DNA of 64,000 bases from Ornithinimicrobium sp. Lineage in GTDB: Bacteria; Actinomycetota; Actinomycetes; Actinomycetales; Dermatophilaceae. The stretch covers positions 18,797-82,796 of the forward strand of contig NZ_DATFMA010000052.1 of the NCBI RefSeq assembly GCF_035267225.1, in the 5' to 3' direction. The stretch's first letter is position 1. The number at the start of each line of letters is the position of its first letter. The notes beneath the pieces were generated by a model. It had not been told where the DNA came from. It did not search any database and saw only the letters and a program-made list of their open reading frames with translations. This document shows positions 2,048 to 39,394 of this stretch, piece by piece. Made by a program: the position numbers and the translations under genes.

Positions 2048-2078
2048 GCGCACAGCCTACGGGGCGGACAATGGCGTC

Positions 2079-3224: not shown

Positions 3225-3891
3225 CGCCGAAGCCCTGGAGCGCCTTGGCCACGAACCAGGTGCCGAAGACCAGAGAGACCACGATCATGATGATCCGGTT
3301 GTTGTCCTCGAGCCATTGACCCACCACGGCCAGCACCTCGGCCGACTTCGCCGGTACGGCGAACGCCACGACGAGCACGGCGACGTGCAGACCCTCCGCC
3401 AGCACGACGAACAGCAGGAACACCAGCGTGCTCACGGGCTGGCCGACCGGGGACGCCTGGATGGCGGCGATGGCTCCCAGGGTGAACACCCAGAACTTGG
3501 GGGCGATCGCAAGCGTCAGCACCCCGAACCCGAAGGCACCCACGGGGCCCACGGTCTGCGTCATCGTCAGCCACTTCGGCGGCGGGTCGTCCGGGTCAGG
3601 ATCCTTGCGGATGCTCCGGACGCCGGAGACGAGGAAGAGCAGACCCATGATCAGCAGGATGACCGACGTCCGCGTGGTGTGGTCGTCCGAAGACATCGAG
3701 CTCCCGGAGGACAGGAGGATCCCGAAGAGGAGCCCTTGCAGCAGCCGGACCGTCGTCAGACCCCCGACGTAGCCGACCGCCGTCCGCCGCCCCTTCTCAG
3801 ACCGCAGCAGCAACACGGTGATGAGGACCTGGACCGGCACGAGGGCGCTGCCGATGATGATCGGCAGAAGGGTGGTCCACAACGATGTCAT
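3217..3891 (-). CDS. GAP/Sap family membrane protein (glycolipid-addressing protein-like)
   Basis: About six hydrophobic segments; DPDPDDPPPKWL loop, PK motif, and WLEDNNRIIMIVVSLVFG C-terminus typical of the family. Confidence 0.7.
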   Translation of the reverse strand: MTSLWTTLLPIIIGSALVPVQVLITVLLLRSEKGRRTAVGYVGGLTTVRLLQGLLFGILLSSGSSMSSDDHTTRTSVILLIMGLLFLVSGVRSIRKDPDPDDPPPKWLTMTQTVGPVGAFGFGVLTLAIAPKFWVFTLGAIAAIQASPVGQPVSTLVFLLFVVLAEGLHVAVLVVAFAVPAKSAEVLAVVGQWLEDNNRIIMIVVSLVFGTWFVAKALQGFGVI

Positions 3892-3927
3892 GACAGCGCC
3901 CTCTTCGTGCCTGCCGCGACTGCGTGC

Positions 3928-6900
3928 TCAGCCACTGCCCCCCCAGATGTCCTCGACGAACCGGTCCTGCGCCCGCAGGTCGGCCAGCCATTGCTCGGCC
4001 TGCTCCTCCGAGGAACCGGTGTGGTCGCGGTAGATCTGGCGCAAGGCGGCCCGCACCCCGGGGGCCATCGTGTTGGCGTTGCCGCAGATGAACACCGCCG
4101 CGCCCTGCTCCAGCAGCTCCCAGATCTCGTCGGCGCGGTAGGCCATCTCGTGCTGCACCCACGCCCGGCCCTCCACCGGCTCGCTGGAGTAGACGGTGTA
4201 CACCGTGGCTACCCCGTCACGCTGGTAGGCCGCCATCTCCTCGGCGTAGATATCGTCACTGGGCTCCCGGCACCCGAAGAAGACCAGTGACCGGCCGACC
4301 TCGGCCCCGTCCGCCTGCTCGGCGGCACGCTCCTGCAGGAAGCCCCGGAACGGCGCGAGCCCGGTGCCCGCGCCGACCATGATCATGGGCACCGAGGGGT
4401 CTTTTGGTGGGTGGAACGCAATGGTGGGCGTCCGCGTGAAGGCGAACACCGTGGCCCCCGGAGCCATGCCAGCCAGGTAGTTCGTGGCCACGCCAGCGAA
4501 CACCCCGTCGCGTCCGCGGTTGGGCCCGCGCACGACGGCTGCGGTGATGGCCGGTGCACGCGCGTCCGAGCGGGGGGAGGAGGAGATGGAGTAGTACCGC
4601 GGGCGCAACGGCGGCAACAGGTCCAGGTACTCCTCGAATGGCAACGCGCAGGAGGGGTTCTCCTCGAGCAGGTCGAGGACCGAGCGGTACGGCTGGACAA
4701 TCTGGCTGCGGTACCGCACCTGCGCCTCCTCGTCCTCGCCGATCAGGGCCTCCAACGCCGCACGCTCGCGAGGGTCCTCTGTGTACCGGGCGAGAGTCTC
4801 GATGCTGTCCCGGTTGGCCATGTCCTGCAGCTCGACGCAGGTGCCGAGCACCGCGAGCAACGGCACCGGCTCGTCGGTCGGCAGGTGCGTCTGGGTGCCG
4901 GGCTTCTCGGTGATGGTGATGAACATCCCGGCGTCGAGAGTGAAGCGAGCCATGACCCGCCGGATGAGCGAGATGTCGTTGCGCGGGACCACCCCGAGGT
5001 GGTCGCCGGCAGCGTAGGAGAACCCGTCGGGCAGTGCCACCTCCAAGTGCCGCACGGATCGGGCCAGCGGACTGCCGTTGGTGCTCTTCTCGAGCTCGCG
5101 GTTGACCGTCACCCGCGACGGAGCCGCCTCGTACGACATGACGACCGGGTTGGACGTCTGCTGGTTGACCGTCGTGACGCTCAGGCGAGGGCCGGTGTTC
5201 ACGGCCTGCGACGCCGTGTCCGGCAGGTCGAGAGCCTGCGCCAGGTCCGCCCAGAGCTCCTTGTGCCACGAGCGGTACTCGCCGTCGAAGTCGCCCCCGA
5301 CGTTGCCCTCTCCTCGGGGGTGCACGCGGGTCCCTCCGTGGGCCTCCAGCGCCGCATCCAGGTCGGTCGGAACCTTCTGGTACGTCGCGGCCCAGTCGCG
5401 GTCCCCGCATCCGAAGACGGCGAACCGGCCCCCGGAGAAGACGTCGCCCGGTGTCGCCGGCTCGGCCATCCACTCGACGAAGTCGCGGGCGTTCTCCGGC
5501 GGCATGCCGTTGTAGGACGACGCCACGACCAGCGTGGCTCCCTCGGTGGGCAGCTGCCGCGCGACCTCGTCCAGCGAGGCCAGGGTGACGTCGTACCCCC
5601 GCTCGGTGCCTTCAGCAGCGAGCTTGGTGGCGATCCCCTCGGCGGTGCCGAGGTTCGAGCCGTAGAGGACCCGCAGCGGCGTGGCGTGGTACTCCACGCC
5701 GGGGAGCACCGAGACCGCCGTCCCTTCGTCCTCGGCAGACTCCTTCCCGGCTGCGTCTGGGCCGCTGTGGTCGAGCTCGAAGCCGGGCCGGGGGACGATC
5801 CGGGCGTAGAACTCGTCGGGCTTGATCGTCAGCGCCGTCTTCAGCTTGAGCTCGTAGTCGAGCGCGTCCTCGATGTCGAAGCGCTGCACGACCATCCCCA
5901 GGATGAGCGCCGCCTCCTGGAGGGCGAACTGACGGCCGATGCAGGCCCGCATCCCCGTGCCGAACGGCTTGTAGCCGTGGACCGACCTTTCGGCCTTGCG
6001 CTCGGGGGACATGTGGTCGGGGTTGAACTCCAGCGCGTCCTCGCCGTACAGCTCGGTGCTGCGGTGCAGCATTGGCGTCAGGACGGTGACCGGAGTCTCG
6101 GCAGGGACCTCGTACATGCCTCCGAGCAGGGTGTCCTCGGACGGAGCCCGGTTGAACACGGGGGCCGTCGGCCAGAGGCGCAGCGACTCCTCCAGCACCT
6201 GGGTGATGTAGGTCAGCGAGTGCACCTGCTCGTACGTCGGCCAGGCGTCGTTTCCGAACACCTCGTCGACCTCCGCCCGGGCTCGCTCGAAGTACTCCGG
6301 GTTCTTCATGAGGAAGTACAACGTGAACGAGAGCAGGCCGCTGGTCGTCTCGTGGCCGGCGATGAGGAAGGTGAGGCACTGGGCGACGATGTTGTAGTCC
6401 GGCAGGCGCTGGCCGGTGCGAGGGTCGACACCGGTGAGCATGACTCCGAGGAGGTCGGACTGGTCTGCCTGTGCACCAGCGGCTCGGCGCCGGTCGATGA
6501 GCCCCTGTACCAGGCTCTTCATGTACTCCTGGTCGTCGTCGAGGCGCCGCCGCTCGCGGATGCGCATCTTGTTGGCCACCGACGGCCTCTTCTGCATGTC
6601 CTGTGCGGCCAGCAGTGTGCGCACCATGGCCCCGACGAAGGGGTGGAGCGACTCGCGGTGCAGGCTGTTGAACCGGTAGCCGAACCCGCACAGCGCGATG
6701 GTGTCGAGGGTCACGGAGGTCATGTCGTCGGTGATGTGCACGACGTTGTCGTCGTCGTTGAGCCGGGCCCACTTCGTCATCAGCTGGTCGGCGATGTCGA
6801 GCATGGCCGGCATGTAGTTCCGCATCGACGCCTGGCTGAACGGCGCCATGAGGATGTTGTGCGCCTGCTGCCAGATCGGGTCGTCGTTGGCGGTGGTGAA

Positions 6901-7176
6901 CAGGCCGCTGCCGGCCGCGCTATGGCTCGCCTGCTCGACCCCGCCGGCCAGCTTCTTGTGGAAGGTGGTGTCGTCGCAGACCTGGTCGACCATGCCCGGG
7001 TCGCTCACGAAGACCCGGGACTGCCCGGCCAGGGAGATCTTGAAGACCGGCCCGTGCTCCTCGCTCAGCTTCATCAGGCCTTCGATCGGGCTCGACATGT
7101 CCAGGTCGAAGATGTTGCCGAGGAGCGGCACGCCTTTGGGTCCTGGGATCTCGTCGAATGGAATGCTGTCCGCCAT
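3928..7176 (-). CDS. cyp102: Bifunctional cytochrome P450 / NADPH-P450 reductase, CYP102 (BM3-like)
   Basis: 1082 aa; FLIAGHETT I-helix, EESLR ExxR, PFGTGMRACIG heme ligand, LYGSNLGTAEG FMN loop, RYYSISSS, MVGAGTGLAPFRGF, C-terminal DIW. Confidence 0.95.
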   Translation of the reverse strand: MADSIPFDEIPGPKGVPLLGNIFDLDMSSPIEGLMKLSEEHGPVFKISLAGQSRVFVSDPGMVDQVCDDTTFHKKLAGGVEQASHSAAGSGLFTTANDDPIWQQAHNILMAPFSQASMRNYMPAMLDIADQLMTKWARLNDDDNVVHITDDMTSVTLDTIALCGFGYRFNSLHRESLHPFVGAMVRTLLAAQDMQKRPSVANKMRIRERRRLDDDQEYMKSLVQGLIDRRRAAGAQADQSDLLGVMLTGVDPRTGQRLPDYNIVAQCLTFLIAGHETTSGLLSFTLYFLMKNPEYFERARAEVDEVFGNDAWPTYEQVHSLTYITQVLEESLRLWPTAPVFNRAPSEDTLLGGMYEVPAETPVTVLTPMLHRSTELYGEDALEFNPDHMSPERKAERSVHGYKPFGTGMRACIGRQFALQEAALILGMVVQRFDIEDALDYELKLKTALTIKPDEFYARIVPRPGFELDHSGPDAAGKESAEDEGTAVSVLPGVEYHATPLRVLYGSNLGTAEGIATKLAAEGTERGYDVTLASLDEVARQLPTEGATLVVASSYNGMPPENARDFVEWMAEPATPGDVFSGGRFAVFGCGDRDWAATYQKVPTDLDAALEAHGGTRVHPRGEGNVGGDFDGEYRSWHKELWADLAQALDLPDTASQAVNTGPRLSVTTVNQQTSNPVVMSYEAAPSRVTVNRELEKSTNGSPLARSVRHLEVALPDGFSYAAGDHLGVVPRNDISLIRRVMARFTLDAGMFITITEKPGTQTHLPTDEPVPLLAVLGTCVELQDMANRDSIETLARYTEDPRERAALEALIGEDEEAQVRYRSQIVQPYRSVLDLLEENPSCALPFEEYLDLLPPLRPRYYSISSSPRSDARAPAITAAVVRGPNRGRDGVFAGVATNYLAGMAPGATVFAFTRTPTIAFHPPKDPSVPMIMVGAGTGLAPFRGFLQERAAEQADGAEVGRSLVFFGCREPSDDIYAEEMAAYQRDGVATVYTVYSSEPVEGRAWVQHEMAYRADEIWELLEQGAAVFICGNANTMAPGVRAALRQIYRDHTGSSEEQAEQWLADLRAQDRFVEDIWGGSG

Positions 7177-28393: not shown

Positions 28394-28411
28394 TTTCGAT
28401 TGTCGTAATAT
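28394..28411 (+). promoter_or_regulatory. Imperfect palindrome TTTCGA-TTG-TCGTAA overlapping a TAATAT -10 box of a leaderless mmpL transcript
   Basis: TAATAT at 28406-28411 lies 6 nt before GTG 28418; one mismatch between the arms. Confidence 0.55.
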
Positions 28412-28417
28412 TCTGCC

Positions 28418-30529
28418 GTGCTGAAGCTCGCCGACACGATCACCTCCCGCGTCTCGTCGCGCGTCGTCGCGGTGGTGGCGATCCTGTTGGCGGTCGGCGT
28501 CCTGGTCGGGGTCGGTCCCGGCGAGCGGTCACCGTCGCCGACCGACACCCTGGCGCAGGGCTACGGCAACACCGAGGGGGTGGAGCTCCTCGACCAGCTG
28601 CCGGCCGACGACACCACCACCGCCATCGCACTGTTCACGGTCCAGGACGAGGACATCACCGCCCGGCTCGGAACGCTGCAGCAGGTCGTCGACAGCCTGA
28701 CGACCACGCAGGGAGAGGAGTACCCCTCCGCCCAGGTCGTCCCGTCGGACGACGGCACCGCCGCGATCGCGGTGCTCACCGTGCCCTCGGCCACTGCCAC
28801 GGACACCTCCGCCGAGGTCACCGCCCTGCGCGACACCCTCGACGAGGAGGCCCCGGAGGCGGTGACCGCCGCGGTGACCGGACCCGCCGCGATCGAGGCC
28901 GACCTCGCTGCCGTCTTCGAGGGCGCGAACTTCACGCTCCTGCTCACCACGGCCTCCGTGGTGGCCGTTCTGCTGCTCGTCACCTACCGCAGCCCCACCC
29001 TGTGGCTGATTCCGCTGACGGTCATCGGCCTGGGCGACGTGTTCGCCTCCACCGCGGCCACCCGTGTGCTCGAGGTCGCGGGTGTGCCGTGGGACGAGTC
29101 GACCACGGGCATCCTGTCCGTCCTCGTCTTCGGGGCCGGCACCGACTATGCGCTGCTGCTCATCTCGCGGTACCGCGACGAGCTCAAGCGGCACGAGAGC
29201 CGGCACGAGGCCATGGCCTTGGCGCTTCGACGCACCTCCGAAGCGGTCTTCGCCAGCTCATCGACCGTGTTCCTCGGTCTGCTGACCCTGCTGTTGTCAG
29301 TCTTCCCCACCACGCGGGGTCTGGGCCTGGCGTGTGCGGTCGGCATCGTGATCGCGGCCGGGTTCGCGCTGGTCCTACTGCCGGCCGTGCTGGTCCAGTT
29401 CGGTCGGTGGGTGTTCTGGCCGCTCGTGCCCCGGGTGGGGCAGGCCGCCCTGGCCGACGGCACCTCCATCTGGAAGCGGGTCGGCAACGCCGTCGACAAG
29501 CGCCCGCCCCTGTTCATCGCCGCGACGGTGGTGGTGCTGGCCCTGGCGGCTGCCGGCGCCACGCGGATCGACCTCGGGCTGCCCACGAACGAACAGTTCC
29601 TCCAGGAGCCCGAGGCCATCAGCGCCGCCGAGCGTCTGGGGGAGTCGTTTCCGGCGGGGAGCGCAGACCCCACGACCATCGTCACCGACACGACCGACGA
29701 GCAACGGCTGGGCCAGATCCAGAGCGCGGTCGAGAGCGTCGACGTGGTGGAGTCGGTGCGTCCGGGCCAACAGGAGGCAGGGATCACGACCTTCCAGGCC
29801 GTGCTCTCCGTGGCACCGAGCACCAGCGGGGGTGAGCAGGCGGTGAAGGACCTGCGCAGCGCACTGGAGGACCAGCCGCGGACGTACGTGACCGGCGCCG
29901 ATGCCGAGGCGCTCGACACCGACGAGGGAACGGCGCGCGACCGGGTGCTCATCCTTCCGCTGATCCTCGGTCTCGTGTTGGTGGCCTTGTTCGGGCTGCT
30001 GCGCTCGTTCCTCGCCCCGGTCATCCTCGTGTCGACCGTGCTGTTGACCTACCTGTCCGCCCTGGGCATCTCCTGGCTGCTCTTCACCACCGTCTTCGGC
30101 TTCAGCGGGCTCGACTCCGGGGTCCCGCTGCTGGCGTTCCTGTTCCTGGTGGCGCTGGGCGTCGACTACAACATCTTCCTCATTACCCGTGCGCTCGAGG
30201 AGAGTGCCGTAGTCGGCGCCCGGGACGGGATCCTCCGCGGGCTGGCGGCCACCGGCGGGGTCATCACCAGTGCGGGCATCCTGCTGGCCGCCGTCTTCGC
30301 CGCACTGGGCGTCCTCCCGCTGGTGGTGCTGGCTCAGCTGGGGGTGGTCATCTTCGTCGGGGTGCTCATCGATACCCTGGTGGTCAGGACGGTGTTGGTG
30401 CCGGCCATCGTGCTGACCCTGGGCGAGACCTTCTACTGGCCTCGACGGCTGCGGCGGGGCAAGCACACCGAAGAAGCCGTCCGGGACGCCGACGATGAGC
30501 ACGACGAGGTCCGCCCGGCACAGAGATGA
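28418..30529 (+). CDS. mmpL: MMPL family (RND) transporter
   Basis: VTGPAAIEADL, GAGTDYALLLISRYRDE, ALGVDYNIFL, TGGVITSAG, DTLVVRTVLVPA. Confidence 0.92.
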   Translation: MLKLADTITSRVSSRVVAVVAILLAVGVLVGVGPGERSPSPTDTLAQGYGNTEGVELLDQLPADDTTTAIALFTVQDEDITARLGTLQQVVDSLTTTQGEEYPSAQVVPSDDGTAAIAVLTVPSATATDTSAEVTALRDTLDEEAPEAVTAAVTGPAAIEADLAAVFEGANFTLLLTTASVVAVLLLVTYRSPTLWLIPLTVIGLGDVFASTAATRVLEVAGVPWDESTTGILSVLVFGAGTDYALLLISRYRDELKRHESRHEAMALALRRTSEAVFASSSTVFLGLLTLLLSVFPTTRGLGLACAVGIVIAAGFALVLLPAVLVQFGRWVFWPLVPRVGQAALADGTSIWKRVGNAVDKRPPLFIAATVVVLALAAAGATRIDLGLPTNEQFLQEPEAISAAERLGESFPAGSADPTTIVTDTTDEQRLGQIQSAVESVDVVESVRPGQQEAGITTFQAVLSVAPSTSGGEQAVKDLRSALEDQPRTYVTGADAEALDTDEGTARDRVLILPLILGLVLVALFGLLRSFLAPVILVSTVLLTYLSALGISWLLFTTVFGFSGLDSGVPLLAFLFLVALGVDYNIFLITRALEESAVVGARDGILRGLAATGGVITSAGILLAAVFAALGVLPLVVLAQLGVVIFVGVLIDTLVVRTVLVPAIVLTLGETFYWPRRLRRGKHTEEAVRDADDEHDEVRPAQR

Positions 30530-30541
30530 AGGAGCTCGATC

Positions 30542-31474
30542 GTGGTGACCGATGCCATGCGCCATCAGGTGCGACGGGCCAGCGGATCGGTCCAGGTCAT
30601 GATCGGTCAGGCTTTGCGGGCCAAGGTGGCCGGCGAGGATGCCCCCCATCGGGCCCAGCGCATCTGGGGAGCGGAGGGCGAGCGCTGGTTCACCCGCGAG
30701 GACCCGGTCTGGCGAGTGCATGCCGATGCCGCCATGTTCCCCGCCGGGGTCACCGCCCTGCTCATGCAGATGCTGCACCCGATGGCGATGGCGGGAGTGG
30801 CCGGCCACAGCGGCTACAAGGGCGACCCGTGGGGACGGTTGCAACGCACCAGCAACTACCTGGCCACCACGACTTTCGGGACCGTGACCGATGCCGAGGA
30901 GATGATCGCCCACGTCCGCAGCATCCACGCGCGGGTGCGTGGCCGTGACGCTCACGGGCGGCCCTACCGCGCGAGCGACCCGCACCTGCTCATGTGGGTG
31001 CACATCGCGGAGATCGACGCCTTTCTGCGGGGCTTTCAGGCCTACGCCGCCGCGCCGCTGACCGACGCCGAGGCTGACACCTACGTCCGGCAGGCCGCGG
31101 TGTCCGCACGCCGGCTCGGTGTGGTCGAGCCGCCCCAGACCGTCGCGGAGCTGCGAGCCGAGCTGGAGTCGTTCCGTCCCGAGATGGAGACCACGCCCGC
31201 CGCGCGCGAGGCGGCGCGGTTCCTGCTTCTCTCCCCGCCCCTGCCGTGGGCCGCCCGGCCGGGCTATGGCGCTCTGGCCGCGGGCGGAGTGGCTCTGCTG
31301 CCCGTGTGGGCGCGCGAGATGCTGGGCCTGCCTCTGCCCGAGGTCGTGGCCCGCTGGGTGGCGCACCCGCTGGGTCAGGTCGGGACCTCCACCGTGCGGT
31401 GGGCGATGGCCGGGCTCGAACGCACCCGAGCCGCCGAGATCGCACCGGGCGCCGCGGAGCAAGAGGCCTCCTGA
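30542..31474 (+). CDS. MpaB/DUF2236 (Lcp-related) oxygenase-fold protein
   Basis: WRVHAD, LLMQMLHP, RLQRT, VRSIHARVRG, YRASDPHLLMWVH. Confidence 0.85.
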   Translation: MVTDAMRHQVRRASGSVQVMIGQALRAKVAGEDAPHRAQRIWGAEGERWFTREDPVWRVHADAAMFPAGVTALLMQMLHPMAMAGVAGHSGYKGDPWGRLQRTSNYLATTTFGTVTDAEEMIAHVRSIHARVRGRDAHGRPYRASDPHLLMWVHIAEIDAFLRGFQAYAAAPLTDAEADTYVRQAAVSARRLGVVEPPQTVAELRAELESFRPEMETTPAAREAARFLLLSPPLPWAARPGYGALAAGGVALLPVWAREMLGLPLPEVVARWVAHPLGQVGTSTVRWAMAGLERTRAAEIAPGAAEQEAS

Positions 31475-32772
31475 TGAGCCAGGAGGTGGTGCGGCCCTCG
31501 CACACCGACCACGCCCGAGGGGGCTTCGACGCCCAGGTCATCGTGGTCGGCGCCGGTATGTCCGGGCTCATGTGTGCCACCGTGCTCGAGTCGGCCGGGG
31601 TGGAGGTGCAGGTACTCGAAGCCGCCCCGGATGTCGGGGGCAGAATCACCACCGACGAGGTCGACGGCTTCCTGATGGACCGTGGCTTCCAGGTGCTCAA
31701 CCCCGCCTACCCGGCGGTCCAGGAGCACATCGACCTGACCGCACTCGGCATGCAGACCCTCGGCGCAGGCGTGGGGGTGCTGCGGGAGGACGGTCGTCGC
31801 GTCGTGCTGGCGGACCCGCTACGCGAGCCGGGGCACCTGCGCGACACCGTGACCAGCGGCTATCTGGCCCCCGCAGAGCTTCTCGCGCTGGCGCGCTGGG
31901 CGGGCCCCAGCCTGGGGCCGGTCGCGAACCTGACCCGTGGCCGGGATCTGCGACGGGGAGCCGCGATGGACCGTGCGGGCCTGACCGGCCCGTTGCGTCG
32001 CGTCGTCGACGGATTCCTGTCCGGAACGGTGCTGGAGGACGACGGCAGCACCTCGAACTCCTTCATCCGACTCCTGCTGCGTATGTTCGCCCTGGGCTCG
32101 CCCGGCCTTCCCCGACGCGGGATGCAGGCCCTGCCTCAGCAGCTGGCCGACGGTCTCGCCCGGCCGGTCCGGACCGGGGCCCGGGTCGACCAGGTGCGTG
32201 ACCTGGGCTCCGGGGCCGCCGTCGCGGTGGAGGGCAGCACGGCGCAGGCCGACCTCGTGGTGGTGGCGACGTCCGCCCCGGTCGCCGAGGAGCTTGTCGG
32301 CGTCCCGGTACCGGTGAGCAAGGGCGTCGTCACCGACTGGTTCACCATGGACGAGGCGCCGAGCCACCTGCCGATGCTGATCGTGGACGGACGCACCGCA
32401 GCCGGACCGATCAAGAACACCGCGGTCATCAGCGCGGGGGCTCCGTCCTACGCCCCCGCCGGACGGCCGCTGGTGCAGACGTCGGTCCTGCTGCCCGCCG
32501 GATCCCGCTCGCTCCCTCTCACCGATGTGCTGCGGCACGCGGGCGAGCTGTACGGCGTGGCGACGGACCGGTGGCAGCACGTGCATCGCCACGAGGTGCG
32601 GCATGCTCTGCCGGCCCAGCCACCGCCCCTGGCCACGAGGAAGCCGCTGCAGATCAGCGAGCGGGTGATCGTCTGCGGAGACCACCGCGACACCGCGTCG
32701 ATCCAGGGGGCGATGGTCAGTGGGAAGCGGGCCGCGCAAGGCTACCTGCGGCGGCATCCTCAGCGGCCCTGA
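31474..32772 (+). CDS. FAD-dependent oxidoreductase (amine oxidase / phytoene desaturase-like)
   Basis: VVGAGMSGL, GGRITTDEVDGFLMDRGFQV, CGDHRDTASIQGAMVSG; TGATG overlap with the upstream gene. Confidence 0.85.
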   Translation: MSQEVVRPSHTDHARGGFDAQVIVVGAGMSGLMCATVLESAGVEVQVLEAAPDVGGRITTDEVDGFLMDRGFQVLNPAYPAVQEHIDLTALGMQTLGAGVGVLREDGRRVVLADPLREPGHLRDTVTSGYLAPAELLALARWAGPSLGPVANLTRGRDLRRGAAMDRAGLTGPLRRVVDGFLSGTVLEDDGSTSNSFIRLLLRMFALGSPGLPRRGMQALPQQLADGLARPVRTGARVDQVRDLGSGAAVAVEGSTAQADLVVVATSAPVAEELVGVPVPVSKGVVTDWFTMDEAPSHLPMLIVDGRTAAGPIKNTAVISAGAPSYAPAGRPLVQTSVLLPAGSRSLPLTDVLRHAGELYGVATDRWQHVHRHEVRHALPAQPPPLATRKPLQISERVIVCGDHRDTASIQGAMVSGKRAAQGYLRRHPQRP

Positions 32773-34204
32773 CCAGCCCGCGGTGCATGGCGGCGAACGT
32801 CGGCTTGTGCCCCGCCCACAGTCCGCCCCAGTAGGTCAGGCCGGGAAGCCCGGCGGGGGTGAACTCGGCCTGCTGAGTGAGCACCGACTGCTGGGGCCGG
32901 GAGCCGGACTCGACCGACAGGATCATCCGCGCCACTCCGGGGGCCTTCATCCGCGAGCGCAGCCACACGCTCTCCCCGGGCCGCACCAGCTCCACCACCC
33001 ACGAGTCGACCTTCATTCCCTCGTGCAGCGGCCCTGGCTCGCGGCGGGCGACGTGGCCCTGGCCCCCCGCGGCTCGGTCCATGAGGCCACGCACGCGCCA
33101 CAGGAAGTCCGGGACGTGCCAGCCGTGCTCACCGCCGAGCTGCTCGATCTGGCTCCAGACCTGTTCGGGGGAGGCGTCGACGGTGGAGCGATGCTCGTCG
33201 ATGAAGACGGTCATCCCCGCCCACTGCGGGTCGGCGGCGCTGATGCGGCCCGGGTTCTCGGCGTCGACGTCGGGCCGTAGCGCGATCGGCTGAGGGCCGT
33301 CGAGCGCGCGCCTGATCGCTTCGTCGAAGCTGACGAACCCTCCCTCGGGATCAGGGATGTAGGTGGCGATGTCGTGCTCCTTGCAGATGACCTCGTGCAC
33401 CAGCGAGCCCACGAGGGGCTTGGCGATGCCGGAGGGGACCGGGGTGACCAGGCCGATCCAGTGGCTGGCCAGGCCGGGCGTCATCACCGGCAGCGTGCGG
33501 ACCCGCCGCTTGGCCAGCCGGGAGACGGCGGCGTACCGGTCGATCATGTCCTTGTAGGTCAGCACCTCGTTCGCACCGATGTCGAATCCGCGGTTCACCT
33601 CGCTCGGGAGCTCTGCTGCCTTGACCAGGTAGCGCAGCACGTCCTGGATGGCGATCGGCTGGATCCGCGTCGAGAGCCATTTCGGGGCGATCATGATGGG
33701 CAAGCGGTCGGTGAGGTGGCGCAGCATCTCGAACGAGGCCGAGCCCGCTCCGAGGATGACCGCCGCGCGGAGCACGGCGGTGGGCACCGCGGAGTCGAGG
33801 AAGACGTCCTCGACCTCCTTGCGGGAGCCCAAGTGGGTGGAGAGCTTCTCCCCGGGTGGGTAGAGGCCGCTGAGGTACACAATGCGCCGCACCCCCTGGG
33901 TCTCGGCGCATTGCGCGAAGGACTTCGCCAGGTTGCGGTCGCGCTCGACGAAGTCGCCGGAGCCGTCCATCGAGTGGATGAGGTAGTACGCGACCTCCAC
34001 CCCGGACATCGCCGAGCGCAGATCCTCCTCGTCGTCGGCGTTCCCTTCGGAGATCTCGACCTCGTCGTGCCATGGTCGGGACTCGACCTTCTCGGCGGTC
34101 CGGGTCAGGACCCGCACGGTCCACCCCTGCGCCAGCAGGGCGGGGACCAGTCGGGATCCGATGTACCCGGTGGCACCGGTCACGAGAGCGCGTCGTTCAG
34201 CCAC
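32717..34204 (-). CDS. Atypical SDR (NAD-dependent epimerase-like) with C-terminal DUF2867/SRPBCC-like domain (YbjT-like)
   Basis: LVTGATGYIG, YYLIHSM, HLGSRKEVE, LRAAVILGAGSASFEMLR, WRVRGLMD. Confidence 0.85.
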   Translation of the reverse strand: MAERRALVTGATGYIGSRLVPALLAQGWTVRVLTRTAEKVESRPWHDEVEISEGNADDEEDLRSAMSGVEVAYYLIHSMDGSGDFVERDRNLAKSFAQCAETQGVRRIVYLSGLYPPGEKLSTHLGSRKEVEDVFLDSAVPTAVLRAAVILGAGSASFEMLRHLTDRLPIMIAPKWLSTRIQPIAIQDVLRYLVKAAELPSEVNRGFDIGANEVLTYKDMIDRYAAVSRLAKRRVRTLPVMTPGLASHWIGLVTPVPSGIAKPLVGSLVHEVICKEHDIATYIPDPEGGFVSFDEAIRRALDGPQPIALRPDVDAENPGRISAADPQWAGMTVFIDEHRSTVDASPEQVWSQIEQLGGEHGWHVPDFLWRVRGLMDRAAGGQGHVARREPGPLHEGMKVDSWVVELVRPGESVWLRSRMKAPGVARMILSVESGSRPQQSVLTQQAEFTPAGLPGLTYWGGLWAGHKPTFAAMHRGLVRAAEDAAAGSLARPASH

Positions 34205-34225: not shown

Positions 34226-35020
34226 TCATGACATCGGGGTGAGGGCCATCAGCAACGGCGGCAGAATGAACAACATGGACATCGACCACACCAGGTGGGT
34301 GATGATCGGGCCGAGAACCCCGCCGGTGACGCGTCGCTGGAGCCCTACCATCGTGCCGAGGACGACGGCGGCGAAGACCAGCATGAGGTTGCCAGTGCTG
34401 ATGGTCACCAGGCCGTAGAGGGCGGTGGAGATCTCCACCGGGTGTTTGCGCCCGATCGCCGCGAAGGCGGCCCCGCGGAAGAACAGCTCCTCGGCCAGCC
34501 CGTTGATCAGGGTGATGCTGGCCACGAGGGCGATCGGGGCGGCGCGAGCGTAGTCGAGGACGTCGTTCACCGGATCGCGCAGAAAGGCGAACTGGGCGAC
34601 GATCACCGCTCCCAGGCAGAAGACGGTGACGGCGAAGACGCCGAGCAGGAACGGCTGGAGCACCGGGCGAGCGTGCCGTTCGCCCATTCGCGTGTGGGCC
34701 CACCCCAGGTGCAGCGGGCCGGAGGCGAACGCCCCCACCGTCCAGACGCCGGCCAGGGCCGCCGTGGCGATGTAGAAGCTGATGTCACCCGGCTCCCGGG
34801 TCAGCCCGTAGCCCAAGAGGAACGAGCCCGCGAACAGCGTGCAGAGGACCACGATCCGCCGCCGGCGGAACTGGGCGTCGGTCTGCGAGTGGTCCCGGGG
34901 GACGGGCGTGACCAGCGCGGCGCGCAGAAACCGCAGAAGCTCCTTGGGGCTGTTGCTCGGCCGGTCGGGCAGCATGTCCTGCTCGGTGTCGGGCTCCTGT
35001 CCCGGTGGCGGCGCGGTCAT
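34226..35020 (-). CDS. CPBP family intramembrane glutamic endopeptidase
   Basis: AEELFFRG motif and C-terminal ITHLVW. Confidence 0.85.
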   Translation of the reverse strand: MTAPPPGQEPDTEQDMLPDRPSNSPKELLRFLRAALVTPVPRDHSQTDAQFRRRRIVVLCTLFAGSFLLGYGLTREPGDISFYIATAALAGVWTVGAFASGPLHLGWAHTRMGERHARPVLQPFLLGVFAVTVFCLGAVIVAQFAFLRDPVNDVLDYARAAPIALVASITLINGLAEELFFRGAAFAAIGRKHPVEISTALYGLVTISTGNLMLVFAAVVLGTMVGLQRRVTGGVLGPIITHLVWSMSMLFILPPLLMALTPMS

Positions 35021-35029
35021 CGGGGTGCC

Positions 35030-35575
35030 CTAGCGAGCGTCCGCGGCGGCGTTGGCCTCGGAGGTCGCACCCGCGTGCGTCAGCTGACCCCCGATGTCCT
35101 CCAGATGGGCGCGGATGAACCACTGGAACTTCTCCAGCTCCGCGGTGTGGCCGATCAGGATGTCCTCGGTGACCGGATCCAGGTCGCCGAGGAGGGCGAT
35201 GGCCTTGCGGTGGTCGGTGAGCAGACCGACGTAGACCAGGTCCAGCGCGGCCAGGTGGGCCAGCACACCGTCCCGCCCGATCGAGTAGTCGTCCCAGGTA
35301 CGGTCGGCTTCGATGGCTCCGGTGGTGCCCTGCGGTGAGCCACCCATCGTGGCGATGCGTTCGGCCACCTCGTCGGCGTAGCCGCGCACCAGATCGACCT
35401 GGGGGTCGAGCATCTCGTGGACGGCGATGAAGTGCGGGCCGACCACGTTCCAGTGCACGTGCTTCAGGGTCAGGTGCAGGTCGTTGTAGGCCGACAAGCG
35501 GTTCTGCAGGAGGCCGACGACGGTGCCGCTCTGCTCGTGGTCCAACCCCGGCACGGTGTAGGTGATCTCGGCCAT
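35030..35575 (-). CDS. dps: DNA starvation/stationary phase protection protein Dps
   Basis: LKHVHWNVVGPHFIAVHEMLD, DEVAERI, ELEKFQWFIRAH. Confidence 0.95.
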   Translation of the reverse strand: MAEITYTVPGLDHEQSGTVVGLLQNRLSAYNDLHLTLKHVHWNVVGPHFIAVHEMLDPQVDLVRGYADEVAERIATMGGSPQGTTGAIEADRTWDDYSIGRDGVLAHLAALDLVYVGLLTDHRKAIALLGDLDPVTEDILIGHTAELEKFQWFIRAHLEDIGGQLTHAGATSEANAAADAR

Positions 35576-35687
35576 GGCCCTGTCTGCTCCCTCTCCGGGT
35601 CGACGTATGGTGGTGGGTCCGACGGTACTCCCCGGTGCCGACGTCGATCATGGGACCCCTTGAGCGCCGCAGATGTGGAGGGACCTC

Positions 35688-36224
35688 GTGGCTGAGCAGC
35701 CAGTGCCGCCCCCGGAGTCGGTGTGGGACTACCCACGCCCGCCCGACGTCGTGCCCAGCGCCGAGCTGGTCGAGGTCCATCACGCCGGCCGGTGCATCGC
35801 GAGCACCTCGAGGAGCCTGCGAGTGCGGGAGACCTCGCATCCACCGACCTACTACCTCCCGGCACAGGCGTTCTCCCCGGGGGTGCTTCGTGCGGTTCCG
35901 GGTACGACGTTCTGTGAGTTCAAAGGCGTCGCGCACTACTTCGACCTCGTGGTCATCGAGTCCGGTGACGGTAGGACGGTCGGGCCGGCCGAGCGCGCTG
36001 CCGGCTCGGAGCGGGTCGCCGCCCGAGCCGCCTGGCACTACCCCCGGACGACGCCCGGCTTCGAGGCGCTACGTGGCCATGTCGCGGTGATGTCGGGAGC
36101 CGTAGACGCCTGCTACGTCGACGGCGAGCGCGTCCAGCCTCAGGACGGCTCGTTCTACGGCGGGTGGATCACCTCCCGCGTCGCCGGTCCGTTCAAGGGA
36201 GCGCCCGGGACGCGCGGGTGGTGA
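35688..36224 (+). CDS. DUF427 domain protein
   Basis: ESVWDYPRPP, ETSHPPTYY, TFCEFKG, FYGGWIT, GPFKG; GGAGG SD. Confidence 0.9.
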   Translation: MAEQPVPPPESVWDYPRPPDVVPSAELVEVHHAGRCIASTSRSLRVRETSHPPTYYLPAQAFSPGVLRAVPGTTFCEFKGVAHYFDLVVIESGDGRTVGPAERAAGSERVAARAAWHYPRTTPGFEALRGHVAVMSGAVDACYVDGERVQPQDGSFYGGWITSRVAGPFKGAPGTRGW

Positions 36225-36231
36225 GGCGCTG

Positions 36232-37737
36232 ATGTCGCCTGCCGGTCACGTGCGGCTGGTGTTCCCGCATCAGCTCTTCCTCGAGCACCTCGAGGCGCCC
36301 CGGGGCACGGTGTTCGTGCTGGTCGAGGACGACCTGTTCTTCCGGCAGTACTCCTTCCACGCCCAGAAGCTCATCCTGCACCGCGCCTCCATGCGGCGTT
36401 TCGCGGCTCGGCTCGGGGACGCGGGCTTCGGCGTCCACGTCGTCGAGAGCGACGCGGAGCGCTCAAGTGGCCAGCGGTGGCAGGAGCTGGTGGCCGAGCT
36501 GGATCCGCAGCGGGTCACGCTGTTCGACCCGGTCGACGACTGGCTCTCCCGGCGGACTCGCGCGATCCTCGATCGGCTGCGGCGACGCACGACCACGCGC
36601 TTGGAGTTCACCGTCGGCGAGGACGTGCTGGAGTCGCCGAACTTCCTCACCACCCGGGCCGAGCTGCGCCAGTGGTTCGCCGAGAACTCGGCGCGCATGC
36701 AGCACTTTTACTCCTGGCAGCGCCAGCGCCTCGGTATCCTTGTCGACGGGGACCAGCCGGTCGGCGGTCAGTGGTCGTTCGACACCGAGAACCGCAAGAA
36801 GCTGCCGAAGGAGCACCCTGTGCCGGCGGTGAGCCTCCCCGGACGCGCGCAGGAGGTCACCGACGCGATCGCCTGGGTGAAGCAGGAGTTCCCGGATGCT
36901 CCTGGCGAGCCCGACGCCTTCGCCTGGCCGACCTGCCACGAGGAGGCAGAAGAGGCATTCGGGCAGTTCCTCGACGAGCGGTTCGCCGAGTTCGGCCCGT
37001 ACGAGGACGCCATGAGCACCGAGCACCGGTTCGTCTTCCACGCCGTCCTCACCCCCGGGCTCAACATCGGGCTGGTCGACCCTCGCTCGGTGGTGGACCA
37101 GGCGCTGGCCGCCGCGGAGGAGCAGGACATCGCCTTGGCCTCGCTCGAAGGGTTCGTGCGTCAGGTCATCGGCTGGCGGGAGTACATGCGCGCCACCTAC
37201 GTCCTGTGGGGCGCGCAGATGCGCACGTCCAACGCGCTGGAGCACTCTCGCTCGCTGGCGCCAGGGTGGTGGCACACCGACGTGGGCCTGCCCCCGGTGG
37301 ACCACGTCCTGCGCTCGGTGGAGCAGACGGCGTACGCGCACCACATCGAGAGGCTCATGGTCTTCGGCAACCTCATGTGCCTGCTGCGGACCGATCCGAC
37401 CGCCGTCTACGAGTGGTTCATGGAGATGTTCATCGACGCCTACGACTGGGTGATGGTGCCGAACGTCTACGGCATGAGCCAGTTCGCTGCCGGCGAGGCG
37501 ATCACCACCAAGCCCTACGTCTCCGGGAGCAACTACCTGCGCAAGATGTCCGACTTCGGCTCCGGCGAGTGGACCGCCTCCTGGGACGGGCTCTACTGGA
37601 GCTTCGTGGCCGACCACCGGGAGGTTTTCGAGGCGAACTTCCGCTCACGCATGATGACCCGCATGTGGGACGGGATGGACGAGGACAAGCAGGCCGAGCA
37701 CCGTCGTCAGGCTGACCGCTGGCTCGGTTCCCGGTAG
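36232..37737 (+). CDS. Bacterial cryptochrome/(6-4) photolyase (PhrB-like), Fe-S-less subtype
   Basis: LVFPHQLF, HAQKL, GGQWSFDTENR, FGPYEDAM, EGFVRQVIGWRE, YAHHIERLM, KPYVSGSNYLRKMSD; no Fe-S cysteines. Confidence 0.88.
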   Translation: MSPAGHVRLVFPHQLFLEHLEAPRGTVFVLVEDDLFFRQYSFHAQKLILHRASMRRFAARLGDAGFGVHVVESDAERSSGQRWQELVAELDPQRVTLFDPVDDWLSRRTRAILDRLRRRTTTRLEFTVGEDVLESPNFLTTRAELRQWFAENSARMQHFYSWQRQRLGILVDGDQPVGGQWSFDTENRKKLPKEHPVPAVSLPGRAQEVTDAIAWVKQEFPDAPGEPDAFAWPTCHEEAEEAFGQFLDERFAEFGPYEDAMSTEHRFVFHAVLTPGLNIGLVDPRSVVDQALAAAEEQDIALASLEGFVRQVIGWREYMRATYVLWGAQMRTSNALEHSRSLAPGWWHTDVGLPPVDHVLRSVEQTAYAHHIERLMVFGNLMCLLRTDPTAVYEWFMEMFIDAYDWVMVPNVYGMSQFAAGEAITTKPYVSGSNYLRKMSDFGSGEWTASWDGLYWSFVADHREVFEANFRSRMMTRMWDGMDEDKQAEHRRQADRWLGSR

Positions 37738-37862: not shown

Positions 37863-38026
37863 GCGTGCTCCAGCGACCGGTACGTGTCGCGAGCGGGTTC
37901 ATCGTCGCACAGCAAGGGCCGAACACGAAACCCGGATCGCCTGTGTCGCAGAAAAAGAGGCTCATCCGTAACAATGGCCGCACATCCGCCCGCGGGCCCG
38001 TCGGCGGGGACGCCTAGTCTGGCCGC

Positions 38027-39394
38027 ATGCCTACCGCGATGCTGTGGCTGCGGCGCGACCTGCGTCTGCACGACCTGCCGGCTCTGACGGCGGCCTGGAA
38101 GGCCGCTGACGGGGGAAGAGTGCTCCCGGTGTTCGTGCTCGACCCCGATCTGCTCGAACAGTCGGACGTGCGCACCCACTGCCTGCTGTCGGCGCTGGAG
38201 GAGGCACAGCAGGCCTACGAGGGGGCGATCGTGCTGCGCCGCGGCAAGCCGGCCGAGGTGCTCCCGACGTTGGTGCAGGAGTCGGGTGCGCAGTCGGTGC
38301 ACATCTCCGCCGAGTCGACGCCCTACGGCCGCCGTCGCGACGAGCAGGTCAGCGACGCCCTGGGTCAGGTGCCCCTGGTGGCGACCGGATCGGCCTACGC
38401 GGTGGGACCGGGCACGATCTTCAACGGCTCAGGGGAGCCCTACAAGGTGTTCACGCCGTTCTCGAACGCCTGGCGCGACCACGGCTGGCCCGACCCGGCC
38501 CAGCCACCGTCCGACGTGCGCTGGCACCGGCAGGTCTCCTCCGAGCCGATGCCGGGAAAGCCGGAGCTCGTCGACGGGGTGGAGCTGCCGGCGGTGGGGG
38601 AGCAGGCGGCCCTGGAGCGCTGGCACGACTTTCTCGACGGAGGTGTCGGTGAGTACGACGACGAGCGGGACCGGCCCGACCACGACGGAACGAGCCAGCT
38701 GTCGGTGCAGCTGAAGTACGGCACGATCCATCCGAGGACCCTGCTGGCGGACCTCAAGGGACGCCGCGGCAAGGGGGTGTACGGGTTCGCCACCGAGATC
38801 GCCTGGCGCGAGTTCTACGCCGACGTGCTCTGGCACAACCCCAGCTCCGCGTGGCAGGACCTCAAGCCCCAGCTGTCGGCGATGGTCTATGACGACCCGG
38901 ACACCGACGACCAGGTGGCGCAGATGGTGCAGGCCTGGCGTGAGGGGAGGACCGGTTACCCGTTCGTGGACGCGGGGATGCGCCAGCTGCTGGCCGAGGG
39001 GTGGATGCACAACCGGGTGCGGATGGTCACCGCGAGCTTCCTGTGCAAGCACCTGCACGTGTGGTGGCCGCACGGAGCACGGCACTTCCTGCGGCACCTT
39101 CGCGACGGTGACATCGCCTCGAACAACCACGGTTGGCAGTGGGTGGCGGGGACAGGCACGGACGCCGCCCCGTACTTTCGCATCTTCAACCCCACCACGC
39201 AGGGGCAGCGGTTCGACCCGAGCGGTGACTACGTGCGCCGTTATGTGCCCGAGCTACGTCATCTGAGCGGCAAGTCGGTGCACGAGCCGTGGAAAGCCGA
39301 CGACGGCTACGAGCACGGCTATCCGGAGCGGGTCGTGGACCACAAAGAGGCGCGTTCCGAGGCGTTGGCGCGTTACGAGCAGTCCCGCTCCTGA
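38027..39394 (+). CDS. phr: Deoxyribodipyrimidine photolyase (CPD photolyase)
   Basis: WLRRDLRLHD, TSQLSVQLKYG, EIAWREFY, GRTGYPFVDAGMRQL..EGWMHNRVRM, DIASNNHGWQW, FRIFNP. Confidence 0.95.
   Translation: MPTAMLWLRRDLRLHDLPALTAAWKAADGGRVLPVFVLDPDLLEQSDVRTHCLLSALEEAQQAYEGAIVLRRGKPAEVLPTLVQESGAQSVHISAESTPYGRRRDEQVSDALGQVPLVATGSAYAVGPGTIFNGSGEPYKVFTPFSNAWRDHGWPDPAQPPSDVRWHRQVSSEPMPGKPELVDGVELPAVGEQAALERWHDFLDGGVGEYDDERDRPDHDGTSQLSVQLKYGTIHPRTLLADLKGRRGKGVYGFATEIAWREFYADVLWHNPSSAWQDLKPQLSAMVYDDPDTDDQVAQMVQAWREGRTGYPFVDAGMRQLLAEGWMHNRVRMVTASFLCKHLHVWWPHGARHFLRHLRDGDIASNNHGWQWVAGTGTDAAPYFRIFNPTTQGQRFDPSGDYVRRYVPELRHLSGKSVHEPWKADDGYEHGYPERVVDHKEARSEALARYEQSRS

Follow-up and report, generated by a model that had tools for sequence, protein, structure and literature searches.

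Genes for transporters of the MMPL class are known from light-induced loci in two actinobacteria. In Mycobacterium kansasii, light induced crtEIBYcYd-mmpL1-crtR 41-fold or more and phrB-tspO-mmpL2 27- to 32-fold, within an overall range of 27- to 300-fold (PMC9861118). In Corynebacterium glutamicum, the crt-linked RND gene is likewise induced by light, under the MarR-type regulator CrtR (PMC6739363). A second family, DUF2236 (PF09995), ranks with the Pfam families that have expanded most in mycobacteria (PMC3388012), and the characterised members that we found all cleave C=C bonds, namely the latex-clearing protein Lcp, MpaB', and the 323-aa Nro1 of Gordonia (PMC5522427, PMC6311187, PMC12724181). 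The essential residues of Lcp are R164, T168, and H198, the last being the proximal haem ligand, and they are supported by R195 and R202 (PMC5522427, PMC6311187). Here we describe a locus of an Ornithinimicrobium sp. (NCBI RefSeq assembly GCF_035267225.1, contig NZ_DATFMA010000052.1, positions 18,797 to 82,796) in which an MMPL gene, a DUF2236 gene, and a gene for a flavin adenine dinucleotide (FAD) oxidoreductase follow one another. The entire 64-kb stretch that we examined, which comes from a soil metagenome and has a high GC content of about 70%, is referred to below as the window.

We read these three genes as an operon peculiar to one lineage that borders a photolyase island, with a role in light or photo-oxidative stress, and we put the probability of this reading at about 40%. 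The trio would form the left arm of an island of ~11 kb that continues with a short-chain dehydrogenase/reductase (SDR) fused to DUF2867, a CPBP protease, and Dps, and then with DUF427, a (6-4)-type photolyase, and a cyclobutane pyrimidine dimer (CPD) photolyase, a set that may serve the response to light and photo-oxidative stress. The three proteins probably handle an unsaturated isoprenoid-type lipid. In the mechanism we propose, a cytoplasmic DUF2236 enzyme would use haem b and O2 to cleave a C=C bond in a membrane compound of the hydrophobic, isoprenoid kind, either a carotenoid or a polyprenyl quinone. The flavoprotein would dehydrogenate or oxidise the same class of substrate, probably together with the neighbouring atypical SDR, and the proton-driven MMPL pump would remove substrate or product from the cytoplasmic membrane. 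The compound itself could be a carotenoid, a polyprenyl quinone (our own suggestion), or a tetrapyrrole. The operon would be young and restricted to one Ornithinimicrobium clade, in which the MMPL gene would have lost a divergent MarR partner, acquired a leaderless promoter with an operator-like block, and been placed before the DUF2236 and FAD genes. A photoprotective role on an isoprenoid-type compound is supported by the independent ties of all three families to light-response loci, and a function in light protection is plausible because relatives of each gene recur elsewhere beside light sensors, photolyases, or carotenoid genes.

Gene layout, domains, and folds of the three proteins

The gene for the MMPL-family RND transporter lies at 28418..30529 (+) and encodes 703 aa from a GTG start that is probably leaderless. 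It is followed by the DUF2236 gene, encoding a putative MpaB/Lcp-type haem b oxygenase (30542..31474, +; 310 aa, GTG start), and by the gene for an FAD oxidoreductase of the amine-oxidase, phytoene desaturase (PDS), and protoporphyrinogen oxidase (PPO) fold (31474..32772, +; 432 aa, ATG start). The three stand out as co-directional genes by third-position GC. The MMPL gene ends 12 bp before the DUF2236 gene begins, with an AAGGAG Shine-Dalgarno sequence in the gap, and the TGA of the DUF2236 gene shares one base with the ATG of the FAD gene in a TGATG overlap; a Shine-Dalgarno sequence precedes the FAD gene as well. A first-pass annotation of the DNA had described three genes linked in just this way, and these genes and junctions were borne out. 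A longer, 508-aa version of the FAD reading frame was rejected because the close homologues listed measure 406-456 aa, mostly 410-435. The sequence of the locus was located in just two sequencing runs, both of metagenome DNA, and no RNA run holds it.

The DUF2236 protein matches PF09995 (MPAB_Lcp_cat) with an E-value of 2e-61 over profile positions 1-221 of 231. Its AlphaFold model has a predicted local distance difference test score (pLDDT) of 88.5, and Foldseek placed it closest to latex-clearing protein 5O1L (template modelling score, TM, 0.55; probability 1.0) and t-anethole oxygenase 8S1J (TM 0.48; probability 0.99), both of them haem oxygenases that cleave C=C bonds. These are the only confident matches, as the next ones have probabilities of about 0.1, and the similarity is moderate, with a root-mean-square deviation of ~7 A. 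Within this fold, R99-x3-T103 and, on the following helix, R126-x2-H129-x3-R133 match the spacings of R164-x3-T168 and R195-x2-H198-x3-R202 of Lcp, a correspondence of motif and helix position only. Of these residues, R126 varies only slightly among 53 orthologues and R99, T103, H129, and R133 do not vary at all, and the full pattern is retained in a homologue of 41% identity from a distant lineage (locus L161; L numbers denote the loci that we collected). Sequence-profile searches of the PDB with the orthologues returned nothing relevant, and the 53-orthologue profile found no Lcp at E <= 10. The domain and the fold match make the earlier assignment to the MpaB/Lcp-type oxygenases sound at the domain level, and the spacing of the putative haem-site residues agrees with it. 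By eye, the N-terminus (VVTDAMRHQVRRASGS...) has no hydrophobic signal segment; as no signal peptide was seen, the protein should be cytoplasmic, and its identification as a secreted rubber oxygenase was rejected for the same reason.

The MMPL protein matches PF03176 in both halves (E 2.3e-99). It scores 395 bits against TIGR00833 (actII subfamily), under the 875-bit cutoff, and has a weak match to HpnN. Its closest solved relatives are MmpL4 and MmpL5 (E 1e-50 to 1e-42), followed by MmpL3 (1e-20), and with 703 aa it falls well short of the ~965 aa of full-length MmpL4/5 chains. Its N-terminus is conserved from residue 3 in orthologues.

The FAD protein matches PF01593 (Amino_oxidase) over its full length (E 1e-39) and carries an N-terminal GxGxxG motif. 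Its model has a pLDDT of 94, and in the Foldseek search the best TM-score was that of rice phytoene desaturase 5MOG (0.80), while the best E-values belonged to coproporphyrinogen/protoporphyrinogen oxidases (PPO/CgoX; TM 0.70-0.72, B. subtilis 3I6D 0.70). Identification as HpnE, CrtI, PPO, or PDS was rejected on curated cutoffs, the scores being 53.8 bits against 283 for HpnE, 45.7 against 238 for the CrtI family, 45 against 97.9 for PPO, and 26 against 569 for PDS. Membership in the superfamily, given by the full-length PF01593 match and the fold, is all that holds. The nearest NCBIfam relatives of the MMPL, FAD, and SDR proteins, all weak matches, are HpnN, HpnE, and HpnA/SdmB, respectively; all of these are isoprenoid-lipid proteins, a weak though coherent pattern.

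The promoter of the MMPL gene

The MMPL gene is preceded by a conserved block, TCGATTGTCGTAATAT (28396..28411, +; also written TCGATTGTCGTA), that includes the -10-like hexamer TAATAT at 28406-28411. Six nucleotides separate the hexamer from the GTG, and there is no purine-rich Shine-Dalgarno sequence. We compared this region with loci from 11 related species, the eleventh of which (L011) is cut off before the MMPL start, and the arrangement t-TCGATTGTC(G/A)-TA-NN-AT, 6 nt, GTG was kept in all 10 loci that reach it. As the layout TANNAT-N6-GTG without a Shine-Dalgarno sequence is found in the window and in 10 of the 11 loci, a leaderless start of the MMPL gene is well supported. Leaderless mRNAs that start with ATG or GTG are common in actinobacteria, and conservation of this layout, far beyond what chance would give, fits such an mRNA. 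The sequence 5' of the block varies across the clade. The block is thus a good candidate for the phylogenetic footprint of a leaderless promoter that relies on a -10 element alone and keeps a conserved element in its spacer; the 5' half of the block probably functions as an operator or as an extended -10 element.

The first-pass annotation had proposed a TAATAT leaderless promoter overlapped by a near-palindrome. The promoter reappears with the same box and spacing in the clade; the near-palindrome, TTnCGAnnnTCGnAA, is present but weak, with 10 of 15 positions symmetric, and an inverted-repeat search with a 6-nt seed found nothing at the MMPL promoter. A sigma-70 two-hexamer scan was blank there because a -35 element is lacking, and an Rfam search also returned nothing at this site. 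A promoter of the extracytoplasmic function sigma type was dropped as no -35 element is conserved across the clade loci. The block occurs once in the window, and in the clade loci a stricter pattern of it is found at the MMPL promoter only, apart from two looser one-off matches.

Other promoters of the island have features of their own. The CPD photolyase gene has a conserved leaderless layout, CCTACCCTGG-N4-ATG (TACCCT, 6 nt, ATG), in seven clade loci (L006-L014), so a leaderless layout is nothing unusual on its own; the corresponding start region of the window, 38007-38029, reads TAGTCT-GGCCGC-ATG. The divergent intergenic region of dps and DUF427 (35576-35672) contains two similar boxes, GTCGA(A/C)GTA and CGACGGTAC, about 20 nt apart. 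This pair is conserved in 12 of 12 clade sequences, differs from the MMPL promoter block, and may represent two operators that serve the divergent promoters of dps and DUF427-photolyase.

The island and its relatives in other genomes

On the 3' side of the trio, the SDR gene (32717..34204, -) encodes an NmrA/3-beta-HSD-like protein with matches to NAD_binding_10, NmrA, 3Beta_HSD, and DUF2867. It converges on the FAD gene, and the two overlap by 56 bp at their 3' ends (32717-32772), so that antisense interference is possible given that no terminator lies between them. In the nine collinear clade loci that have no insertion, the tblastn coordinates show the two genes still overlapping, by roughly 18-50 bp. 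On the same strand and 5' of the SDR gene are the genes for an Rce1-like CPBP intramembrane protease (34226-35020, -) and Dps (35030-35575, -), and beyond them lie DUF427 (35673-36224, +), a (6-4)-photolyase-related DPRP protein (36232-37737, +), and the CPD photolyase (38027-39394, +), all assigned with Pfam. The MMPL gene and the two photolyase-family genes thus fall within 11 kb, without the contiguity that the M. kansasii genes show. Genes for phosphofructokinase (PFK), a formate/nitrite transporter, and BioY lie on the 5' side of the trio. Among isoprenoid-related genes, the closest to the operon lies 26 kb away, at 1914-3224 (+), and encodes a geranylgeranyl-reductase-family flavoprotein that scores above the cutoff of TIGR02032 and has weak similarity to MenJ. 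It adjoins genes for a Sap/SfLAP-family membrane protein (3217-3891, -) and a P450-BM3-like P450/flavodoxin/FNR fusion (3928-7176, -), and the genes from 1914 to 7176 are an isoprenoid- or lipid-related set.

To follow the DUF2236 gene across genomes, an alignment of its orthologues was scanned against one genome per species, which gave 80 loci of 59-87% identity. Neighbours in these and the other fetched loci were assigned by tblastn with at least 40% query coverage and crude clustering of open reading frames (ORFs), and some metagenome contigs are short. The complete trio is confined to 11 loci of a single Ornithinimicrobium clade, which are collinear over about 15 kb from PFK through the photolyases. 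The DPRP gene is missing from two of them (L010 and L014), some clade contigs end early, and crt genes were not found in the 11 loci by similarity search. That the trio is conserved is, on its own, little guide to function. The linkage is real, but the step from it to a single pathway, taken by the first-pass annotation, is less firm than it seems: the trio belongs to one genus-level collinear clade, and the MMPL and FAD partners differ elsewhere. Within this clade, the subclade of O. sediminis has ~2.3-2.7 kb inserted between the FAD and SDR genes, including in L015 a 791-aa ORF without a Pfam match. The same subclade carries a TspO/MBR-like gene (L015, 9078-9893, -; L016, 9162-9890, -) for a 271-aa membrane protein that scores 25 bits against a Pfam cutoff of 24.

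The 69 DUF2236 loci outside the clade have lineage-specific neighbours, and five of them have light-related ones. A gene for the B12-dependent regulator CarH/LitR (Pfam-confirmed) lies 0.6-0.9 kb from the DUF2236 orthologue in L059 and L066, a (6-4)-type photolyase (DPRP) gene follows it by 0.65 kb in two Serinicoccus species (L033 and L043), and a CPD photolyase gene lies 3.4 kb away in L060. All five are within 3.5 kb although the loci span +/-10 kb, which argues against random placement. MMPL genes are adjacent or close to the DUF2236 orthologue in another tally of five among the 69 loci, in two orientations and with two MMPL paralogues. Marihabitans asiaticum (L031, 6882-10846) has the only co-directional MMPL-DUF2236 pair outside the clade, with proteins of 57% and 70% identity, respectively, a spacing of ~18 bp, and no FAD gene; a 196-aa MerR-family gene without a B12 domain is divergent to this pair. 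A small PNPOx-like gene stands immediately 5' of the DUF2236 orthologue in about 10 Terrabacter/Humibacillus loci (L017-L030), and in Serinicoccus L033 one is found just past the DPRP gene that follows DUF2236; such a gene may supply a partner related to flavin, F420, or haem. Across Micrococcales and Propionibacteriales the orthogroup is broadly conserved and looks single-copy, unlike a catabolic or secondary-metabolite gene. We found no literature on a physiological, non-catabolic, or light-related role of bacterial DUF2236 proteins.

A metagenome scan for the FAD protein gave another 80 loci, whose homologues share 32-56% identity with the protein of the window; in 52 of them, 3 kb or more of flanking sequence is available on one side or both. 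The FAD homologue has CarH/LitR, photolyase-family, or crt genes nearby in 11 of the 80. Six loci have CarH/LitR (MerR and B12 domains) beside it (L103, L109, L131, L140, L151, and L169; Pfam-confirmed for L131 and L151), six have photolyase-family genes, with DPRP abutting the homologue in L099, L131, and L135, and three have crtB or a geranylgeranyl diphosphate (GGPP) synthase gene at 0.4-1.8 kb (L103, L109, and L128). These loci are scattered over the whole tree of the FAD family rather than gathered on one branch; L103 and L109 have very long branches, probably from errors in ORF extraction, and are counted with caution. The first-pass annotation had named a lack of conserved linkage to crt or photolyase loci among the findings that would refute it, and such a lack is not what we see, as both the DUF2236 and the FAD families recur beside CarH/LitR, photolyase-family, and crt genes in other Actinomycetota.

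Atypical SDRs are the more frequent companions, adjoining FAD homologues in about 20 of the 80 loci. A TIGR01777/YfcH-type SDR gene stands directly 5' in 15 loci, and an SDR-DUF2867 or SDR-TspO gene is the neighbour in five, twice in the order SDR, CPBP, FAD. The co-directional string SDR-DUF2867, CAAX, FAD is found in L123 and L145 and the order SDR-TspO, FAD in L092 and L129, and an Rce1-like gene recurs with SDR and FAD in these four loci. MMPL and DUF2236 neighbours are found in four loci and two loci, respectively. The firmest functional partner of the FAD enzyme is accordingly the convergent SDR-DUF2867 gene, not the MMPL gene. In the YfcH-type loci (L114-L127, L147, L148, L158, L160, L164, and L172), which are often flanked by sucB/lpdA on the 5' side and a peptidase S51 gene on the 3' side, the SDR has Epimerase and DUF1731 domains and is ThyD-like (a cyanobacterial model). 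Arsenicicoccus dermatophilus (L092, 3789-13233) has a co-directional string of Rce1-like, SDR-TspO, FAD, a fusion of glycosyltransferase family 2 and NUDIX, and DUF2238. This string is 4 kb from a UbiA prenyltransferase gene, two ORFs of ~106-109 aa, and the phytoene synthase gene crtB, which look like a C50-carotenoid-type cluster. An SRPBCC gene comes after the FAD orthologue in Arthrobacter and Nocardioides, DUF427 overlaps the FAD start in Mycobacterium L086 and L097, an SDR follows FAD in a Mycobacterium, and nothing telling is near the orthologue in Serinicoccus and Cellulomonas. One distant actinobacterial contig of ~55% GC (L161) repeats the order DUF2236, FAD, with proteins of 41% and 36% identity to those of the window and gaps of 8 bp before the DUF2236 gene and 11 bp before the FAD gene. 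The gene 5' of this pair (3152-5455, +) encodes a 767-aa protein without a Pfam match, in which a signal peptide and a large extracytoplasmic domain are followed by a polytopic membrane domain at the C-terminus.

MMPL orthologues of 56-61% identity in Serinicoccus, Knoellia, and Nocardioides are each divergent to a MarR gene. MarR adjoins three of the four orthologues outside the clade, without crt genes. The neighbours of these orthologues are unrelated to DUF2236 or FAD, and that of O. cryptoxanthini sits 3' of a dodecin gene. The MarR-paired genes have normal leaders and ACTTAGT-type palindromes, from which it would follow that the clade lost its MarR partner and gained a new promoter. Palindromes of the form ACTTAGT..ACTAAG are found between MarR and MMPL in L088, L089, and L090 (6900-7000) and 5' of MMPL in L078 (about 3850-3940), are likely to be MarR operators, and are absent from the window clade.

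Weighing the explanations and comparison with described systems

Several observations weigh against a light-related pathway. Wherever the trio occurs, the region around it is collinear throughout, which makes its conservation inseparable from shared ancestry. The opposite-strand TspO-like gene splits MMPL from DUF2236 in L015 and L016 (O. sediminis and a metagenome-assembled genome), and the spacing of DUF2236 and FAD ranges in the clade from overlap to 111 bp (L001), so the coupling of the three genes is not maintained. No light-related neighbour was seen in 64 of the 69 DUF2236 loci or in most FAD loci, and the enrichment of such neighbours is an order-of-magnitude judgement made without a matched control set. 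The commonest neighbours are unrelated to light, being YfcH-type SDR genes with sucB/lpdA/S51 for the FAD family and a large ATPase, PNPOx-like genes, and an aldehyde dehydrogenase for DUF2236 outside the clade; we read the ATPase as DUF853/HerA-like and the dehydrogenase as methylmalonate-semialdehyde dehydrogenase (MMSDH). A tblastn search with Pfam-confirmed LitR was blank in the window and the clade loci. As the first-pass annotation had stated, crt and MarR genes were not found in the window, which holds for the ORFs scanned (most, not all, of the confident ones), and elsewhere the MMPL orthologues keep company with MarR. An operator common to the MMPL promoter and the photolyase or dps/DUF427 promoters was looked for and not found; as the MMPL block is not shared with those promoters, there is no sequence evidence for co-regulation of operon and island. 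Finally, the described crt-linked MMPL genes have given no pigment phenotype. No mmpL1 mutants came out of a pigmentation screen in M. kansasii, which its authors read as no effect on pigmentation (PMC9861118), and inactivation of the RND gene in C. glutamicum did not affect carotenoids according to its authors (PMC6739363).

Many of these points favour a serious rival, an accidental juxtaposition of three unrelated and individually widespread genes through rearrangement in one lineage, in which a generic efflux pump of the MarR-regulated type, a housekeeping DUF2236 enzyme, and a housekeeping flavoprotein would share a transcript and no pathway. The limitation of the trio to 11 collinear loci, two of them split, agrees with it, as do the pairing of MMPL orthologues elsewhere with MarR and unrelated genes, the spread of DUF2236 orthologues at 59-87% identity across families, usually without either partner, and the SDR as the main partner of the FAD family. 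It does not account for the return of the order DUF2236, FAD in the distant L161 with its 8-bp and 11-bp gaps, for MMPL-DUF2236 adjacency in five non-collinear loci with different paralogues and orientations, for the independent links of all three families to light-response loci, or for the conservation of the new promoter block across the clade. We regard chance juxtaposition as somewhat less probable than the operon of our main reading and more probable than any other alternative. The photo-oxidative-stress operon also has a more specific version, in which the DUF2236 enzyme, a PDS-like flavoprotein, and an SDR-DUF2867 or SDR-TspO partner would make up an undescribed light-regulated pathway of Actinomycetota that oxidatively cleaves and remodels an endogenous polyprenyl compound (a carotenoid or a photolabile menaquinone side chain) to a protective or signalling lipid, exported in Ornithinimicrobium by a recruited MMPL pump. 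This version is speculative and a good deal less probable than the general one.

Tailoring and export of a carotenoid, as the first-pass annotation had proposed, would make the operon a satellite of the crt regulon whose enzymes form apocarotenoids or add desaturations while the MMPL protein exports the product. The precedent it cited, an MMPL gene in a crt operon, is real and light-inducible in both C. glutamicum and M. kansasii (PMC6739363, PMC9861118). The FAD model superposes best on phytoene desaturase, and FAD homologues are near crtB or GGPP synthase genes in three loci and 4 kb from the C50-type genes of Arsenicicoccus. Set against this are the lack of crt genes among the window ORFs scanned and in the 11 clade loci, CrtI, CrtD, and PDS equivalog models that score far under cutoff for the FAD protein, DUF2236 orthologues that are near-universal in families where carotenoid production is not, and the loss of crt-linked MMPL genes without pigment change (PMC6739363, PMC9861118), which leave this reading rather doubtful.

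A tetrapyrrole is a still less probable substrate. Here a PPO/CgoX-like FAD enzyme would oxidise a porphyrinogen, the DUF2236 protein would bind or open a tetrapyrrole, and the MMPL pump would export a porphyrin photosensitiser. It would explain the best Foldseek E-values of the FAD model, the fusion of TspO, a porphyrin binder, to the SDR in L092 and L129 and its insertion between MMPL and DUF2236 in L015 and L016, the Dps gene of the island, the PNPOx-like genes beside DUF2236 in Terrabacter and Humibacillus and near one in Serinicoccus, and the light induction of phrB-tspO-mmpL2 in M. kansasii. The PPO equivalog model, however, matches only the N-terminal FAD-binding stretch of the FAD protein, PDS gives a better TM-score than PPO, no characterised DUF2236 member is known to act on tetrapyrroles, and no haem-biosynthesis genes are nearby. 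A catabolic or xenobiotic role, with cleavage of an exogenous alkene (polyisoprene, a phenylpropene, or a synthetic rubber-like compound) and efflux of toxic aldehydes, has its precedent in Lcp, t-anethole oxygenase, and Nro1 as C=C-cleaving members of the fold or family, and is very improbable given the missing signal peptide, whereas Lcp is described as secreted or extracellular (PMC5522427, PMC6311187), the lack of adjacent aldehyde dehydrogenase or beta-oxidation genes in the window, and the 59-87% identity of DUF2236 orthologues across many genera, which suggests an endogenous substrate.

DUF2236 is very widespread in Actinomycetota, yet the characterised members that we found are catabolic or secondary-metabolite enzymes. 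If the photo-oxidative-stress operon is what we propose, a conserved physiological substrate with a link to light stress would be the first housekeeping role for this family. Light-induced MMPL genes have been studied experimentally in two cases without any phenotype, and a defined enzyme pair beside such a pump would offer a concrete route to its cargo. The pairing of the FAD enzyme with an atypical SDR is itself widespread beside photolyases and B12 photoreceptor genes, and we found no functional study of it. If the association is positional only, the finding is an ordinary lineage-specific operon.

Compared with described systems, the window resembles the M. kansasii loci in the clustering of MMPL with photolyase. 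It has no crt, MarR/CrtR, or TspO gene, a TspO-like gene being found only in the O. sediminis subclade, and the MMPL proteins are likened by locus description only; DUF2236 and the FAD enzyme are not listed among the M. kansasii loci as the paper describes them. The crt operon of C. glutamicum also has an MMPL-class gene, co-transcribed with isoprenoid-pigment genes, and the MMPL orthologues of other genera have a divergent MarR gene, whereas in the window clade MarR and the ACTTAGT-type palindromes are gone and a leaderless promoter with a different conserved block stands in their place. With MpaB', Lcp, t-anethole oxygenase, and Nro1, the DUF2236 protein shares PF09995, a globin-like fold, and a size like that of Nro1 (323 aa), and its Arg/Thr/His pattern agrees with theirs in spacing; it differs from Lcp in having no sequence similarity detectable by a profile search of the PDB and no secretion signal. 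MpaB' has a membrane anchor, and none was seen here. The FAD protein shares GxGxxG, full-length PF01593, and the fold with PDS, CrtI, HpnE, and CgoX. It is shorter, at 432 aa, than CrtI, and its atypical SDR partner (DUF2867-, TspO-, or YfcH-type) is not a feature of those pathways. A furan-fatty-acid pathway of the UfaD type was considered and rejected, as no DUF1365 or cyclopropane-fatty-acid-synthase-like gene was among the recurrent annotated neighbour clusters of the 80 FAD loci. The combination of an SDR, an amine-oxidase-like FAD enzyme, and a photolyase is one that is met in the singlet-oxygen regulons of Proteobacteria, such as the sigmaE-ChrR regulon of R. sphaeroides with UfaD.

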